NCBI RefSeq assembly: GCF_011745625.1
Contig: NW_027191482.1
Location: 62,001 to 126,000, forward strand
DNA from: Cladosporium halotolerans
Lineage: Eukaryota
Reading direction: 5' to 3'
Length of the DNA: 64,000 bases
The notes under the pieces were generated by a model. The model had not been told where the DNA came from, made no database searches, and saw only the letters and a program-made list of their open reading frames with translations. Positions 5,503 to 41,705 of the stretch are shown piece after piece. A program made the translations under genes and the position numbers. Position 1 is the stretch's first letter. Each line of letters starts with the position of its first letter.

Positions 5503-7653
5503 ATGGCTGCTGGACGCTCGCTTAAAACCCTCGTCGGCCGCCGCCGGCGCCTGGACGAGGAAGGCGAGGATGACGAAGGGCCGGTGATGGTGGACGACTC
5601 GCAGAGCGAAGGCTCGGTGTTGACGGAGATGGACGAGAGGAGCGACGACGAAGAGACCCGCAGCGCCGGCGATGGACAAGCGGTGCAGGGCGCGAATGGT
5701 AATGCTGTGGAAGAGAAGCGGGAGGGATCGGCAAACGGCACGCGACCTGGGAAAAAGTCGCGGAAGCCTAGGAACAAGGGCGGCAAGAAAGAAAGGGGCG
5801 AGAGCGCTGATGGAGCGGCGGGGCAGGGAAACCTATTCCAGGCTACTGCGGATACGGAGGCGATGATGAAGGGTATGAACCTTGAGGACACTGGGGAAGG
5901 CGCCATTCAATTTGGAGACATGGACGAGCCAGTACACATTCCTTCGGGCAGCAGGTCACAAGCTGGGAACGGGCGTGCAGAGCGACCTGTCGACCGCCAA
6001 AGGCGAGAGCACCAGGAATACAAGCAGAAACGGAGCGCCGACCCTGCCTTCATACCGAACCGCGGCAACTTCTTCATGCACGACACTCGCGGGGCACCCA
6101 ACGGCCAGGGCCCTCCTCCGACTCGAGGTGCACTTGCGAGGGGCAGAGGGCGAGGAATACCGCAGGTCGGAGCCTCTGGAACGCCGCCAAATCCTGCGCA
6201 GCGACAAGACAAAGCGTCTGAGATGCCCTGGAAGCACGATCTCCATGAAGTTATTAATGAGGAATCGGGCCCTGGAGCTCAGAACAAGCCCGCGGTCTCG
6301 CAGCAGCAGCAACGCGACGATGCATCGCGTCTTTCCGCACGACACGCCCTCCCAACACAAGCATCAAGACCTGGACCGCCGCCTACGCTTTCTTTCGACG
6401 TGACCATACCTGTCGCTAAAGGTCAAGCTCGCGTATTTTTGCCTGGCATGAAGACTGCCAAGATGGGCTCTGAACTTTCCATCAAGAAGTACATCCGGCT
6501 GCCCAACCACAGACCGCCTTTGCGAAGGGACAAGCCCGTACGAGTCTTCATACCTGGTTTGGGTCCGAGATATATTTTCCCGTCGATGGAGCGATCTTTC
6601 ATTTTCATACCGCGGCAAATGCGCCCGAACCAGCGCGGCTTTGGGAGCAGCAACTACCATCGCAACACTGGTGGCTACGGATACTCTAGTCGACGGACCA
6701 GTATGTATGGCGGGAGCATGTACTCCGCTAGCGTTGCGCCGAGCAGGAGATCATCTATCGCCCGGGACAACACCTTCTCCCCGGTCTCTTTTGCAAGTGG
6801 GTTTGGCGGACAGGCTAGGCCCGTCGTTCGGCTGCCGTACAACGGTCAGGTTCTCTCAACTGGCACCTCGCCCGCAGGCCCGCTCTCTGGACATCAAACG
6901 CCGACTGGACAGGTTCTGCATACATACCCGCTACCGCAGAACGCGCCGCTGTTCAACACGCCCATGTCGACCGTGCATCAGCCCAGGCCGCAGAAACAAT
7001 TTTCTGTCACCGGCATCGAGTCGCCAGCGGTTCTGCACCAGTCACGAACTCCCACAGACGAGCAACAGCCGTTCCAAAACCAACTCCCAACTCACATGGC
7101 AGAGCAATCTGCTGGCTCGCACCAAGCTCAGGTTCCGTTCTATCCCCAGCAGCCGCACTACGCGTATCAGAATCAGTCACACCAGGCTGCCACGCCCCTA
7201 TCCGGAATCCCTGAGAATGCGATGAATTCCCAGGCCTTCCAGCAGCCGGCGATGTACTACCCGCAATATCCACCGCAGCATGGCATGTATTATCCGCAAC
7301 CAATGCAAATGTACATGCCTCCTTCCCAGGGTTACATGGCTCCGCCGCAGCAGCCTTTGTCGCAACCACAGCACGATCGGACTCAGGCTCAGGAAGGGCA
7401 GCGAGAACAACGGGAAGATGCAGCGCCGTCTGGTATGGTCGCTCACGAAAGCAACGGCATGGTCTTCTATATTCCTGCGTCGGAAGCTCAGCAACAAACG
7501 TCGCAAGAGCATTACCAGCCTGCTGAGAGCTTCGTGCCCTCGTACGCGATGCCGGGCCTCCCGCCGCCGACACCGGCGCCCGAGGCAACCTATTACTACC
7601 CCATGGATATGCAACAGGCGATGTACTACCCTCAGCAACAACCGCAGCAATAA
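5503..7653 (+). CDS. Btz/CASC3 (Barentsz) domain protein, exon-junction-complex associated
   Basis: DPAFIPNRGNFFMHDTR...RGRGRG...PWKHDLHE is the Btz/SELOR signature; Q/P/Y-rich tail; 716 aa. Confidence 0.8.
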   Translation: MAAGRSLKTLVGRRRRLDEEGEDDEGPVMVDDSQSEGSVLTEMDERSDDEETRSAGDGQAVQGANGNAVEEKREGSANGTRPGKKSRKPRNKGGKKERGESADGAAGQGNLFQATADTEAMMKGMNLEDTGEGAIQFGDMDEPVHIPSGSRSQAGNGRAERPVDRQRREHQEYKQKRSADPAFIPNRGNFFMHDTRGAPNGQGPPPTRGALARGRGRGIPQVGASGTPPNPAQRQDKASEMPWKHDLHEVINEESGPGAQNKPAVSQQQQRDDASRLSARHALPTQASRPGPPPTLSFDVTIPVAKGQARVFLPGMKTAKMGSELSIKKYIRLPNHRPPLRRDKPVRVFIPGLGPRYIFPSMERSFIFIPRQMRPNQRGFGSSNYHRNTGGYGYSSRRTSMYGGSMYSASVAPSRRSSIARDNTFSPVSFASGFGGQARPVVRLPYNGQVLSTGTSPAGPLSGHQTPTGQVLHTYPLPQNAPLFNTPMSTVHQPRPQKQFSVTGIESPAVLHQSRTPTDEQQPFQNQLPTHMAEQSAGSHQAQVPFYPQQPHYAYQNQSHQAATPLSGIPENAMNSQAFQQPAMYYPQYPPQHGMYYPQPMQMYMPPSQGYMAPPQQPLSQPQHDRTQAQEGQREQREDAAPSGMVAHESNGMVFYIPASEAQQQTSQEHYQPAESFVPSYAMPGLPPPTPAPEATYYYPMDMQQAMYYPQQQPQQ

Positions 7654-18347: not shown

Positions 18348-19658
18348 ATGGCCGCTTTATCAACATGCCCTCCAGTCAATCGGACGTCGGTGCAAGAAGC
18401 CCACAAACGTATTGAGAAATACATTCACCGAACACCAACCGTGACCTGCGAGACCTTGAATCGAATCGCATCGACGCCAGAGTCACAGCGGTGTCCAACA
18501 ACCGGCCCGAATGTAGCTGCCGAGCCTGCTCCTCATACCAACGGCGTCCAGGGCGATGCTTCCAAATTCAAAGCCAACCCAAAAGTCAGGCTTTTCTTCA
18601 AGTGTGAGAACCAGCAGAAGATCGGTGCCTTCAAAGCGAGAGGTGCCTTCCACGCTCTGGGTCGATTGATCGAAGAAGAGGGCATTGAGAATGTCAGGCA
18701 GAAAGGTGTCACGACACATAGCAGTGGTGAGTGAACTCAGCCAGTAGGAGTAATTCGAGTAGGACCTGACTTGTGTCTTCCAGGAAATCATGCCCAAGCC
18801 TTAGCTCTAGCAGCGAAAACGCACAACGTCCCCGCCCACATCGTCATGCCCACCATCTCCACCCCGTCCAAAATCGCCGGGACCAAATCCCACGGCGCCA
18901 ACGTCATCTTCTCCGGATCAACGAGCGACGAGCGCGAAGCCGTCGTAGCAGATGTTATCAAGAAGACCGGCGCAACCCTAGTGCCGCCCTACGACCACCC
19001 GGACATCATTCTCGGCCAAGGAACGCAAGCGCTGGAGCTCGAGCAGCAGGCCGCAGACCTAATCGCCGCAGACTCCACGCTGAGTATTCCGGGAAAGAAA
19101 GGCCTAGATGCCGTGATCGCTCCCATCGGCGGCGGCGGCATGCTCTCTGGTATCTGCGCGGCGCTGCACGGCACTGGCATCAAAGTCTTCGGCGCGGAGC
19201 CCAATTTCGAAGGAGCAAACGACGCAGAGATCGGCTTGCATCAGGGTAAGCGCGTGGAGAAGGTGAAAACGCTAACGATCGCGGACGGTCTGAGGACTCC
19301 CGTTGGCGAGATCCCCTGGTCGATCATCACGGACAAGTCGAAGTTGGCGGGCATCTACAGCGTCGACGAGGAGCAGATCAAAGCGGCGTTGAGGCTGGCT
19401 ATGGAGCGGGCGAAGCTTTTCATCGAGCCTTCTGCTGCCGTGCCGCTTGCGGTGATGCTGTATAATGAAGACTTTAGGCGGCTGGTTGAGCGTGAGGCGG
19501 GGCCTGAGGGGTGGAACGTTGGTATCATTCTGTCAGGCGGCAATACGACGGTTGATGCGATTGCGAAGATGTTCGCAGCGCCTCCTAAGGTTGAGGAGCG
19601 AGCGAACGCAACGCGTGGCGCTCAGGGCGAGAAAGTAGCGGAAAACGTGGCGGGTTAA
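18348..19658 (+). CDS. PLP-dependent serine racemase / threonine dehydratase family (SRY1-like)
   Basis: KCENQQKIGAFKARGA (PLP lysine), HSSGNHAQ across intron 18727-18783, PIGGGGMLSG, TIADGL, EPSAA, SGGN. Confidence 0.9.
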
Positions 19659-19766
19659 AAGCCAACAGAAATGTACAGAGATATAATGTCGAATACGTAT
19701 ACCTTCAAATGCCCGCCTGCCAACTCCGGTCCCAATGTGCTTTTCATGTACACAAAATTGAATGTC

Positions 19767-22449
19767 TTAGAATCCCCGAGCATATATGGCCATGGTCGAT
19801 GCTGACGAATTGCCACACGCTCCGCTGACTCCACCTGATAAGGCGCCCCCAATGCAAGGGTAACAGTTGTTGTCTCCTGCATTACCGGTGACGGAGCTAC
19901 CCCCTAAAATGCCAGAGACACTGGTGGTTGGTCAGCAATCCACGCAATGGTCGAACATTTGTGCCAATTTGAAAGGTCATAGGTTGCACCTACACGGTCA
20001 CATATGCGATTTGATTGCCGCACCACTGGATCGCAAATTTAAGTCAGCGCCCAAACTGCTAGAGATGACATTGGGCTACCGCACGCATTCCACAGTAGTA
20101 CTGCCGACGTTTAAAGTGCCGAAGTAGATCGTGCCTTGACCAAGGCAGGCTGCGCTGCACTTGCTGTTGGCCAATGTCGGATACGAAGTTTGATAAGCGG
20201 GTAACGCTCGACCGCTGGTGACGGATGGTGACCCGGTATGAACATAGCATCCCAAATAGCCATAAATATTCTGAGGAGAAGCCGAAGCTCCTGGAGGGCC
20301 GGAGGGGCGTAGGGAACTTGTCAGTAAGAGGGAGACAATGCCGACTCGAGCGTTACTTATCTGAAGGACCCTGAGCGGATATTAGCTAGGTTATTTATCA
20401 TCTCATTCGGTCCTGAAGTCCTGATGCAATACCCAGAGACCTTATGGAGTGCCATTTCCGTAACCAGCGATCACATGTGGCAATACGTGATTGATGTAGA
20501 AAAATGAGCAGCTTACCGTCGCACCTTGAATCCCTTGCACTCCTTGAGTCCCTGTCGGGCCTGTCGGGCCAAATGGTCCAGACGGCCCTGCTACACCTTG
20601 AGGGCCCTGCGATCCCGGTAGACCTTGAGTGCCTGTCGGGCCCGGCGGGCCATTTGGTCCCGTTACTCCAGTGGCTCCAGTCTCTCCTTGGATACCCTGA
20701 GTTCCTTGCGGGCCTTGTAGACCTTGAGCTCCCTGAACTCCCTGAATACCTGTCGGCCCTGTAGGTCCTGGTGGTCCAGACGGTCCAGTCATTCCCGCTG
20801 CTCCAGTAGGCCCGATATTTCCTTGCGCGCCCTGCGCTCCTTGTAGACCTTGAGTGCCTGTAGGGCCGGGCGGTCCAGTTGGCCCCGTTGCTCCAGTCGC
20901 TCCGGTATCGCCTTGTATACCCTGAGCTCCTTGTGGACCTTGTGTTCCCTGAACTCCCTGCGTGCCTGTTGGCCCTATCGGCCCAGTCGCTCCAGTCTCG
21001 CCTCGAGGTCCAGTTGGCCCCGCTGGCCCAGTCTCTCCCTGCACTCCTTGAGGTCCCTGTGCACCTTGCAGTCCTTGAGAACCCGTAGGTCCAGGTACGC
21101 CTGTAGCCCCAGTCGGTCCTGTGGCGCCCGTCGCAGTGGGTCCAGTTTCTCCTTGTGGTCCCTGAGGTCCTTGTACACCCTGCAATCCTTGAGAGCCCGT
21201 AGGCCCTGCTGCTCCGGTGGCACCCGTAGGTCCAGTGTCCCCTTGAGGTCCTTGTATACCTTGCAATCCTTGCGGCCCAGTTGCTCCAGGTACGCCTGTG
21301 GCTCCAGTGGGTCCAGCCGGCCCTGTTTCGCCCGTGGCGCCGCTGGAACCTGTCTCGCCTCTAGGTCGTGGTGTCTGTTAGATTCGCCCTCGAAGCAACG
21401 AAAGATGAGCGTGACTTATCTGTTTCGCCGGTGGGGCCCTGGCTTGTGTTAGCGGTCTCTTGATTGAGGGAGTTTGTGCTTCAAGGTTACTTACGATTGG
21501 GCCTGAAGGGCTGCGATGTGTACAAGTTAGCAGATAGTTCGCTCGAAGGCCATTTATAAGACCACTAACCCGGATGGGCCGGTCGGACCGGTGCTGCCTG
21601 GGGTCCGTGGTGAGAGTCAGCTTGGTCTGTTCCGTTTTTTGCCTTTCTCTCGGCCGACTTATCTTGCGGTCCAGTGATCGTAGCGAACGAAATCGCCTGA
21701 CAAGACGAGACGGAGAACAGCGACAGCGAGATGAAAAGACAACCCTCCGGCTGCGCGTCTTGCATGAAAACCGCAAACACCGTGCCGTTTTTCATTGCAC
21801 AAAAGCTAGCCTGGCCGTTGTAAAATGCCTCGTTCTGCCATTGCAGCAGCGCGTTCGAGCCGATGGTGAATGTCGTCGTGATCGATCCGGGGACAGTGCT
21901 GGGCACGAACATGGCAGCTCCGACGCCTTCTGATGTTGAGTATGTGTACACGACGCCGTCTAGGGTGGCTGTGAGAACACCGTTTCTGGCTGTGTATATG
22001 GGTGATGTTGTGCAGTCGTTTGTGATCGTGCCGTTGCTGCTGACGAAGTAGCTGCCTGATTGGCGCTTTTGGTTTCTTTGATGTTCCATTGCGATGAGGA
22101 CGAAGACTTCGTCTGAGTGCGTTGGACTTGGTGGGACCTCGCTTATAAACGACGCTTTTGTAGATACCATAGTGTTGCCTTGGTTTGGGAAAGTCGATGT
22201 CCATCGTAATGTGGTGATGCCATTGATGCTTGTTGGCGCGTTTGTGACTGTGATCGCGGCATCGGAGAATGGATAAAACGTCGTATTCAGTAACACGTCT
22301 GTATTCACGGATACCGGCTGCTCGTAGACCACTCTTCGAACAGGCGGTATTCCAGAGAAACAAGCTGACTGTGAGTGAACTGGAGCTGGCGAAATCAGTA
22401 ATGCTCCCAAAAACGCCAGCAAGAAACGTTGTAGTCTTCGTGACCTCAT
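19767..22449 (-). CDS. Secreted collagen-like protein with C-terminal WSC domain (about 709 aa, 9 exons)
   Basis: Exons on minus: 22449-21663, 21606-21570, 21510-21495, 21438-21420, 21367-20517, 20370-20361, 20308-20085, 20025-19994, 19920-19767 (2130 nt, open). Signal peptide; globular N-domain; about 107 Gly-X-Y triplets; then YLGCY...KCSAAC...YFG...ECWCG...NCYPC...ACG (8 Cys, WSC pattern). Confidence 0.8.
20309..20360 (-). other. AT-AC intron (U2-type), 52 nt
   Basis: TCA G|ATAAGT...ACTGAC AAGTTCCCTAC|GC CCC TCC GGC restores GPS-GPS-GPP and leads into the WSC exon. Confidence 0.72.
20517..21367 (-). repeat. Coding collagen (Gly-X-Y)n tandem repeat
   Basis: About 94 triplets in this exon. 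GXT/GXP blocks alternate with GXQ blocks; a single interruption (GPT-AT-GAT). Confidence 0.95.
21368..21419 (-). other. AT-AC intron (U2-type), 52 nt
   Basis: ACA G|ATAAGT...TCTAAC AGACACCAC|GA CCT AGA GGC restores GET-GPR-GET. The first usable AG downstream (TAG) is out of frame. Confidence 0.75.
21607..21662 (-). other. AT-AC intron (U2-type), 56 nt
   Basis: CAA G|ATAAGT...GCTGAC TCTCACCAC|GG ACC CCA GGC restores GPQ-GTP-GST. Confidence 0.7.
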
Positions 22450-23650
22450 GACGAGCTTTGGAGATAGCCGATCGTGAATCGGATCAGTAACATAAAATGC
22501 ACAGAGAATGGAGACTTCAAGGTAATATCAGCGTGTTAGGCCGTGAGAGTGAAGACGCTCCTCTCACCAGATACCAGATACCGAGCAAAGAACATCCCGA
22601 TCCAAATAGTCGGCGTTGCTACAGCAAGCCTGGGCGCCGGGCCCGAGTATCGGTCGGTCACAGGTGCAAAGTACAAATCGGGACGTAAGGAATGAAGTGC
22701 GTGTGGTTTTGCGGTGCGCGCTGCATTCCGGCACGAAGTCAAAGCCGAGCACACCAGAAGCCGGATTCTACTACACAACAGGTTGACCTGGTTGTCAGGT
22801 CGACGTGCAGATATAACATGACGATCATCGGTTCAGCTCGTTCACGTAGAGTATCGGCATGATGCTCCTCTGAAGTCGACTGCTTGCTCTTCGGACTGGT
22901 AGAGAAATGGTCCGCAGGCAGGGTGGTGACCGCAACAGAGCGCGGACTCGGGCCGAAGGGATTCGGTACGACGGGCATGGCTTGCTCTTGTATGCTACAG
23001 TCCAGTGGTGCGCTGTCTGACACTGGACGGTAGGCAACGGGTATATCTCCAGCATGATGTAACTAGATCATCATATTATTTCTTAGATCTCGGAGTCTTT
23101 AACGATCTTTGTGCTCGTATTGCAATATTTCGTAAATGAAACGGAGGATGAACCATTGAAAAGAGAATAAGTTGGTTTGTCAAACCTTTCCATGTGCCTC
23201 GAGGGAGAAGGTAACTCGTGGGGCGGATGTGTAAGATTGCAGAAGCTTGTAAAAACGGGACAGCGCGTAGATGGTACTTGTGATTAGTCTTTTCGGCTTC
23301 ATCTGGCATGAGTGCACGCGAAGAGACCTCGTCAACCATGGGTAGACGCAGGCTGCACATCGCTGAATACGTGATGTTAATCAGTAAGGCGAATGCGTAA
23401 GCTGACGACTGAATCATTGCCATGGGCTTCAGATGCAAAAACAGGAGAAAGCGCGTCGCAGTCGTGACACGGCGCGCACGGCCCCTGGCCAATCCTCCGA
23501 CCTCACCATTCGCAGCGGCCCTTCTTGAACGACATCCTAACACTTTCAACCGCCACCACACGACGACGTGAAAATGCCAGTGTGTTCAGCATGATTTACA
23601 GTCAGCCATCGACAACCTGAAGACATGCCAGTTCCCAGGGCACCACCCCA

Positions 23651-40875: not shown

Positions 40876-41705
40876 ATTAATGTAGTGCGTCAAACGAATT
40901 CATGTCAAAGGACACCTTCTCCGTGCTTCTCTTCGCGAATACTCCTGCGCAGATCTTTTGATTGGAGAACGGCAAAAAGACAAAAAACATACAACAGGCG
41001 GGATTCCCAGATGGTCACCCACTCTAGTACTAGTCGCCCGGTTCAGTGCTTATGTATGGCAGAGCGGACGGGATGCCCAGTTTTCACTGACCTGTGGTCG
41101 TATGTGATCTATCAACAAAGCTCATTCAATATAATGATTGAGTTTTTACCTGGCGCGATTGTTCGTTCATGGATGTAAATCACAGCGAGGGCAGTGTTTC
41201 GCTGAAGCGTTCACCTACCTGTGTCTCTCCAATAGGGTATCAACGAGGTCAAGCTTGAGAATTGCGCAAACCTTCGAATGAGCAAATGTCTCCAGGGGCA
41301 GTGAAGGTGCTGAGGACTTCAACGACCTCGGGTCGATGGATCGCGTAGGCCGGACACTGCTGACTCAGCCTTCGGGGACCCAGGGACTCGGGGACCGCAT
41401 GTGTCAAGCCAGAATTGCATTGTTAACCACGCTCAATAACAACGTCTCGTGCCGTTCGAGCTACTAGAGCGATACTCTACCGACCGACATTCCTACAGTC
41501 GGTCTCAGCCCCGCGTGTATGTCGCTGAATTGCCAACCAATGTTCCCACCAGCCCGCTCTACGCTTAGAACGGCGCCCACTCTGAACGCAGGCTAGTATG
41601 CAGGCATCTGAAGGCCTTACTAATATCTCATTGAAATACTGTCCTGGTGTCCTCAGGTGCGAAAACCTGCACCCTACGTGATTTGACTGCATCACGAAAG
41701 TTTGA

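Follow-up and report, generated by a model that had tools for sequence, protein, structure and literature searches.

Three probable U2-type AT-AC introns in a collagen-like gene of the fungus Cladosporium halotolerans

Few intron classes are as rare as U2-type AT-AC introns: in the extracts of the catalogue of Sheth et al. 2006 (PMC1557818) on which we draw, they number 24 among 608,562 U2-type introns from five species, the catalogued cases being given as 0.003 % of U2-type introns, with human SCN4A and SCN5A as examples, and type II AT-AC introns are hypothesised for fungal xylanase genes. The same extracts report that a G-to-A change of the first intron base is rescued, in yeast and human, by a G-to-C change of the last one, and double mutants of this kind have been engineered in both (Parker and Siliciano 1993; Chanfreau et al. 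1994; cited in PMC10711555 and PMC1557818). The cited part of PMC10711555 adds that interactions between the first and last bases can redirect 3' site choice. In fungal annotations AT-AC is listed as a minor combination (table in PMC7072748), which by our own arithmetic amounts to about 2 per 10,000 fungal introns. We describe here a gene of Cladosporium halotolerans, located on the minus strand of a 64,000-nucleotide (nt) stretch of contig NW_027191482.1 (hereafter the window), which codes for a DUF7908-collagen-WSC protein and is interrupted by three gaps that are probably genuine U2-dependent ('type II') AT-AC spliceosomal introns.

When set beside the catalogued type II introns, these gaps share with SCN4A and SCN5A the AT and AC termini, a strong U2-type donor (ATAAGT), an ordinary U2-type branch site and borders that are conserved between orthologues. 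They differ in their number, three for a single gene and five in that of a relative, in their uniform position (phase 1, within Gly codons belonging to a repeat), in that duplication of an exon-intron unit is indicated in the family, and in being known from sequence alone. The comparison with the engineered double mutants is also close: the same pair of changes separates the gaps from GT-AG, and a canonical G/GT...YAG/G counterpart (Y, pyrimidine; the slash marks the exon-intron border) exists at the same codon in a metagenome relative, L003; the present introns, unlike those mutants, are natural, conserved and multiplied.

The gene runs from an ATG at 22449 to a stop codon whose end is at 19767 and, in a spliced model built from coordinates, comprises nine exons, eight introns and 709 codons. 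The frame is open throughout, and the 709-amino-acid (aa) model contains, in that order, DUF7908, about 330 aa of Gly-X-Y repeat and WSC, with the Gly-X-Y register intact across every collagen junction. Pfam searches on exon pieces found DUF7908 (PF25485) in exon 1 (119.3 bits for a cut-off of 27, E 1.9e-34) and collagen (PF01391) in exon 5 (155 bits for a cut-off of 27.2, E 4.1e-46). On exon 7 alone WSC (PF01822) reached 21.9 bits, the cut-off being 27.8, since the domain is divided by two introns; the public protein P0102, a spliced sequence with 100 % identity to the window's last three exons, has PF01822 among its precomputed domains. The product is predicted to be a secreted protein, its N-terminus being signal-peptide-like as read from the sequence. 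Metarhizium MCL1 is a fungal collagen-like surface protein, secreted and with a Gly-X-Y block; these features are common to both, the flanking DUF7908 and WSC being what differs. The parts of the nine-exon model are listed below.

21663..22449, minus strand: exon 1, signal-peptide-like N-terminus and DUF7908; ends ...ATC ACT GGA CCG CAA G; 95 % identical over 262 aa to the relative P0003
21607..21662, minus strand: AT-AC gap 1, 56 nt, phase 1, ATAAGT...CTGAC-N9-AC
21570..21606, minus strand: exon 2, 37 nt, conserved in the read-through tail of P0003, with two inferred changes, both synonymous in the collagen frame
21511..21569, minus strand: intron 2, GTTAGT...CTAAC...CAG, 59 nt, phase 2
21495..21510, minus strand: exon 3, 16 nt
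21439..21494, minus strand: intron 3, GTAAGT...CTAAC...CAG, 56 nt, phase 0
21420..21438, minus strand: exon 4, 19 nt, GPTGET(G)
21368..21419, minus strand: AT-AC gap 2, 52 nt, phase 1, ATAAGT...CTAAC-N9-AC
20517..21367, minus strand: exon 5, 851 nt, main collagen Gly-X-Y block
20371..20516, minus strand: intron 5, GTAAGC...CTAAT...CAG, 146 nt, phase 0
20361..20370, minus strand: exon 6, 10-nt micro-exon GGTCCTTCAG, between the 146-nt GT-AG intron and gap 3
20309..20360, minus strand: AT-AC gap 3, 52 nt, phase 1, ATAAGT...CTGAC-N11-AC, at the collagen-to-WSC junction
20085..20308, minus strand: exon 7, collagen end, linker and first part of WSC
20026..20084, minus strand: intron 7, GTGCGG...CTGAC...CAG, 59 nt, phase 0
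19994..20025, minus strand: exon 8, 32 nt
19921..19993, minus strand: intron 8, GTAGGT...CTGAC...CAG, 73 nt, phase 2
19767..19920, minus strand: exon 9, WSC end and stop codon

The borders of the three gaps are aag/ATAAGTCG...CTGACTCTCACCAC/gg for gap 1 (21662-21607, 56 nt), cag/ATAAGTCA...CTAACAGACACCAC/ga for gap 2 (21419-21368, 52 nt) and cag/ATAAGTAA...CTGACAAGTTCCCTAC/gc for gap 3 (20360-20309, 52 nt), and the last intron base lies 10, 10 and 12 nt past the branch A, respectively. All three lie in phase 1, inside a Gly codon. Retention of any of them shifts the frame, with stops 32, 19 and 2 codons past the junction, and DUF7908, collagen and WSC share one frame only if the gaps are removed. 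The composite motif ATAAGT-N20-50-CTRAC-N6-10-AC (R, purine) has four matches on the two strands of the window, which are only these three sites, one of them at two lengths; 0.22 matches were expected, and four were reached in none of 100 shuffles. A preliminary description of this DNA had given the gap coordinates, the ATAAGT starts, the CTRAC branch sites and the AC ends exactly as we find them, letter for letter; its statement that all three split a Gly codon in phase 1 and that cutting at AC restores Gly-X-Y holds in the spliced model. It was also right that the other five introns are GT-AG (donors GTTAGT, GTAAGT, GTAAGC, GTGCGG and GTAGGT, all with AG ends) and that GPRGET recurs in the repeat, where it is present in the large exon of the printed protein. 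The AG one triplet past the AC (window 21359-21367 and 21598-21606) shows more conservation than would be expected of a free third codon position; at gap 3 the in-register AG stands two triplets past the AC (20291-20308).

The public annotation has only the end of this gene. P0102 is WHR41_07128, a 164-aa 'hypothetical protein' [Cladosporium halotolerans] spanning window 19767-20470 and covering the WSC end; its start is an ATG within intron 5, from which gap 3 is translated before 'PSGPPGAS...', and it is not joined to the N-domain or collagen parts. It uses the same intron 5 acceptor as the nine-exon model, and its junction ...VEC/WCGN also agrees. The expectation that standard gene predictors would fragment the gene is thus borne out by WHR41_07128, which starts in one intron and translates another. 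Two other NCBI models, P0001 (Cladosporium fusiforme) and P0002 (Elasticomyces elasticus), have all three Pfam domains but are out of frame inside the collagen part. The three-domain architecture is intact in P0105 (621 aa) and P0146 (591 aa).

To describe the gaps as a class, 11 AT gaps (three from the window, five from metagenome locus L001 and three from L002) were compared with 18 GT-AG introns of the same three genes. The base at -1 is G in 11/11 AT gaps and in 10/18 GT-AG introns. The donor is ATAAGT in nine of the 11 (3/3 in the window), the other two being ATAGGT and ATATGT, and in the window it differs from the fungal consensus G/GTAAGT at +1 only. Agreement with AAGT at +3 to +6 averages 3.82 of 4 positions for AT and 2.56 of 4 for GT donors (Mann-Whitney p 1.3e-4, on rows that are not independent). 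At the other end, the last three bases are YAC in 11/11 AT gaps (CAC eight times, TAC three times), followed by G, and YAG in 17/18 GT-AG introns. A CTRAC-type branch site is present in all 11, with its A 10-12 nt from the 3' end; the range for the GT-AG introns is 10-18 nt, these distances being read by eye since the automatic pick chose a later decoy motif in two introns. Lengths are 49-58 nt for the AT gaps and 51-146 nt for the GT-AG introns.

The ATAAGT donor can also be read from the translations of protein relatives. A search with the N-domain returned 99 proteins, 144-459 aa in length, from metagenomes and Dothideomycetes (Zymoseptoria tritici and Hortaea werneckii among them), and the majority end just past that domain; the tails of many report intron letters, because plain open-reading-frame (ORF) calls read into the first intron. 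In P0003 (95 % identity), P0004 (91 %), P0005 (71 %), P0008 (72 %) and P0019 (76 %), the tail '...ATITGPQDK(S)' corresponds to G/ATAAGT(C) at the gap 1 site. Where a domain end was recognisable (73 of 232 proteins), the first interruption was GXY/DK in nine and a phase-0 GT donor (V...) in 23. In an N-domain tree of 63 sequences, the window groups with P0003, P0004, P0005, P0008, P0019 and the gene model P0001 (support 94/80), while a second AT group made of P0034, P0046, P0050 and P0051 falls in the other main branch (100/99); the GXY/DK homologues are spread over at least two separate clades. P0068 (Zymoseptoria tritici) ends in 'GPT/DEPQDKY' and P0050 in 'GPT/DESF'; these protein-level tails suggest ATGAG-type donors, i.e. 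AT versions of GTGAGT.

The tail of P0003 crosses gap 1, exons 2-4 and introns 2-3 and enters gap 2. Against the window (tblastn) it runs in frame +1 through 'DKSAER' and in frame +2 from 'KLT...' on, i.e. there is a 1-nt indel in gap 1, as expected for non-coding DNA; ATAAGT and ...ATC AC/G G are kept despite it. A Trp (TGG) implies that the window's CCCCAG/GC is there CCCCTG/GC, a synonymous Pro change which removes the in-register AG after gap 1. Further on, '...AKQISHAH' gives a gap 2 donor and a following 9 nt that are the same as in the window.

Relatives at the DNA level came from a metagenome scan, which yielded six loci; wherever collagen-frame segments were separated by a gap, every cut compatible with Gly-X-Y was tried.

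L001: N-domain 67 %; six GT-AG introns, all phase 0 after ...GAT; five AT-AC introns, the fifth at 6160-6208
L002: N-domain 66 %; seven GT-AG introns; at least three AT-AC introns, the contig ending after the third
L003: N-domain 52 %; phase-1 G/GTTAGC...CTGAC...CAG/GA at the gap 1 codon; no AT-AC intron seen
L004-L006: N-domain 69 %; one intron-less collagen exon, no GT-AG or AT-AC intron in the collagen part

The strict ATAAGT motif has four sites in L001, two in L002 and none in the other four loci. The L001 intron at 6160-6208, at the collagen-to-WSC junction, is orthologous to window gap 3, and the window micro-exon GGTCCTTCAG matches the last 10 nt (GGGCCTTCAG) of the L001 exon which precedes it. 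The linker of exon 7 is homologous to GASATSNLFGYLGCY of the intron-less L004. Three orthologous intron pairs of L001 and L002 are AT-AC on both sides, and the L003 intron is a canonical GT-AG counterpart of gap 1, in the same codon and the same phase. Conservation of the termini in related species, which the preliminary description had put forward as a check, was found for the gap 1 donor in five relatives, for both ends of gap 1 in P0003 and for the ortholog of gap 3 in L001. One AT-AC gap of L001 (6037-6087, 51 nt) is free of stops and, if retained, could add 17 non-collagen residues without a frameshift; this is the sole such case among the 11. A pattern search of genome contigs gave 63 matches and one of viral contigs four, with no relative of the gene in either.

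Duplication of units is visible in these loci. L001 has one unit more than L002. Two of its units, L001_U1 and L001_U2, each consist of the exon GVPGATGSTGP[TI]GPT followed by an AT-AC intron, and L002_V1 aligns with either of them, even through the intron body; in this family, a unit of exon and AT-AC intron has accordingly been duplicated in tandem, or lost. In the alignment of paralogous units (A1), the invariant intron columns are the donor, the branch motif, the terminal AC and few others. Window exon 2, (G)TPGSTG, resembles the start of the L001 and L002 units, (G)PAGSTG. For the window itself, it had been suggested that the two 52-nt introns, gaps 2 and 3, arose by intragenic duplication. 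They do share ACGCTC; the similarity above chance did not hold up, since its value of 0.69 compares with 0.65 +/- 0.03 for shuffles and was reached by 73 of 500 of them, and a duplication origin of gaps 2 and 3 was rejected as unsupported.

From these data we infer that AC, rather than AG, is the acceptor, and it is on this point that the best surviving alternative differs. According to it, the introns would be of the AT-AG kind, or would use AC as well as AG, with the in-register AG one triplet on (two for gap 3) as the acceptor, so that the protein would lack GTP, GPR and GPSGPP at gaps 1, 2 and 3. We consider this unlikely, though it deserves the most attention among the rivals, as several observations speak for it or weaken the case for AC. 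An in-register AG stands exactly 9 nt past the AC in 10 of the 11 AT gaps, which is above the 47 % base rate for A at that place (78/167; P = 0.003 on the assumption, which does not hold, of independent gaps), and a cut there keeps Gly-X-Y and drops one triplet only. The AT gaps are related by descent, so that counts such as 11/11 overstate the number of independent observations, and the donor states of the protein relatives come from translations of read-through ORFs, not from DNA. Lastly, reads of four of 24 sequencing runs (X1, X2, X3 and X18), aligned to 18500-23500 at 90 % likeness, gave contigs that contain intronic and intergenic DNA and show a joint at none of the eight introns; being DNA-like, such contigs say nothing about expression of the gene.

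The spacing would be conceivable for AG, at 18-21 nt from the branch A; against this, the AC is at a normal branch distance, the AGs being 18-30 nt away. Gap 3 lacks an AG at +9, and between its branch A and the next in-phase AG there are 30 nt. After gap 1, the synonymous change in P0003 has abolished the AG but left the AC intact, and the terminal YAC is invariant in 11/11 gaps though the intron bodies have diverged. The 9 nt after the AC behave like exon: they vary mostly at third codon positions (positions 2 and 5), and between L001 and L002 they differ at 3/27 sites (11 %), as compared with 10.5 % for exons and 31 % and 41 % for intron bodies. Finally, in the literature as cited in PMC1557818, an A at +1 is rescued by a last-base C, not G.

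The only joint in the four runs was seen in X3, a soil-metagenome contig of a close relative, and links 20718 to 20962 with 27 other letters in place of 243 nt of the collagen exon. This repeat-length variant is a length polymorphism of the Gly-X-Y block.

It could next be supposed that the gaps are not spliced at all, the locus being a decaying gene or, as the public annotation implies with its separate 164-aa WSC gene, a set of two or three genes; in relatives, most database models do end after the N-domain. We hold this to be improbable. The Gly-X-Y repeat is perfect and stop-free over about 330 residues, and purifying selection acts on the exons, as seen from the 95 % identity to P0003 and from the synonymous changes in exon 2. 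The collagen block lacks a start and a signal peptide, the start of the public WSC model lies in intron 5 and that model translates an intron, the short models are ORF calls or the output of GT-AG-restricted predictors, and intact three-domain proteins are present in the family.

Canonical GT-AG or GC-AG splicing at nearby sites, which would remove or bypass the gaps, has in our opinion a slim chance. It could use the GT at +5 of ATAAGT or, for gap 3, a 246-nt intron (20516 to 20271) by which the micro-exon would be skipped together with the gap. Pairs which keep the frame do exist, namely GTCGGC(21658)...AG(21594), GTCACG(21415)...AG(21361) and GTAAGC(20516)...CAG(20271), found by an enumeration that is permissive and useful only for naming canonical rivals. 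However, the +5 donors (GTCGGC, GTCACG and GTAACG) are poor and put Asp, Asn or Lys in the Gly register, and the one in gap 3 leaves a 40-nt intron with its AG 4 nt from the branch A. Among the seven L001 and L002 AT gaps examined for this, a GT-AG cut keeping the register was available in one (with the poor donor GTCCTA) and an AT-AC cut in all seven. The 246-nt bypass skips earlier AGs downstream of the branch point and deletes GASASPQ, which aligns with the coding GASATS of the intron-less L004.

That the gaps are U12-type introns, for the minor spliceosome, is very improbable. AT-AC termini are typical of one U12 intron class (PMC1557818, in the extracts cited), and these terminal dinucleotides are all that is shared: the ATATCCTT donor (ATATCC) is found in 0/11 AT gaps and the TCCTTAAC branch box (TCCTTRAY or CCTTRA) in 0/11. 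Moreover, the part of PMC2846911 on which we rely reports U12 splicing, and with it the machinery, to be missing in Ascomycota and Pezizomycotina, in agreement with the preliminary description, according to which filamentous ascomycetes are not known to retain the minor spliceosome. The chance that the termini are sequencing or assembly errors for GT...AG is negligible, as six coordinated errors would be needed (three G to A, three G to C), the same letters are implied by independent relatives and present in two metagenome contigs of another organism, and the translation of gap 3 in the public protein P0102 comes from the same letters.

Thus, we favour U2-type AT-AC introns. The earlier reading of the gaps as such stands as regards the donor, the branch site, the distance to YAC and the lack of U12 signals; use of the AC itself is deduced from sequence. 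The signals and the absence of U12 splicing in Ascomycota reported in the cited part of PMC2846911 together point to removal by the major spliceosome. If yeast and human work is a guide, U1 and U6 would still bind the ATAAGT donor and U2 the branch site, and at the second step the A at the first base would pair non-canonically with the C at the last base, so that YAC would be used instead of YAG. As the collagen part in relatives is made of short exon plus intron units which duplicate in tandem, an AT-AC founder unit could have been multiplied, and since reversion would require two simultaneous changes, the AT-AC state could have been locked in. A regulatory role, such as the splicing-efficiency control put forward in the preliminary description, need not be assumed, a founder effect plus this two-mutation lock-in being the simplest account.

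How a GT-AG intron could become AT-AC may be connected to the repeat. In a Gly-X-Y context the 3' site may slide by 9 nt harmlessly, which would open a path through harmless intermediates: in a first step the last G would change to C and splicing would move to the AG one triplet on; in a second step G1 would change to A and splicing would return to the AC. The conserved AG at +9 could then be a footprint of this path, or else a back-up or alternative acceptor that is still in use and gives isoforms one triplet apart. On the same reading, this Dothideomycete family might hold the densest known U2-type AT-AC arrays (three to five or more per gene), enabled by the Gly-X-Y register and multiplied by unit duplication; we put the whole forward as a conjecture that could well prove wrong. 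Type II AT-AC introns are known; what would be new here is arrays of them spread with a repeat. A literature search, which did not extend to supplements, found no paper on the DUF7908-collagen-WSC family or on arrays of AT-AC introns.

A few observations concern the protein and the surroundings of the gene. The AlphaFold model of the DUF7908 domain (21664-22449, minus strand) has a mean predicted local distance difference test (pLDDT) score of 76.8. Searched against PDB, the structure gave no match at E <= 0.001; its C-terminal ~150 residues have weak beta-trefoil-like matches, the best being macrocypin 3h6q (E 0.014), with FGF, IL-1 and CBM92 also among them. Speculatively, the protein might be a secreted and possibly carbohydrate-binding one, in which a collagen stalk lies between a terminal WSC and a weakly beta-trefoil-like DUF7908 at the opposite end. 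Elsewhere in the window are two RNA genes, both on the minus strand.

40986-41105, minus strand: dispersed 5S rRNA gene, 78.5 bits
24879-24979, minus strand: tRNA gene, Rfam 45.6 bits, no ARAGORN call; about 34 nt in the anticodon loop where the model has 5, probably because it bears an intron

To conclude, genes with three to five AT-AC introns, side by side with GT-AG introns of similar size and with a competing AG 9 nt on, constitute a natural experiment which bears on first- and last-nucleotide pairing, on 3' splice-site choice and on the origin and spread of rare introns. Gene finders restricted to GT-AG split or mis-frame the members of this family; this is seen directly in WHR41_07128, P0001 and P0002, and about 100 models that are cut short are consistent with it. 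As a result, databases largely miss a secreted collagen-like protein that is widespread in Dothideomycetes.

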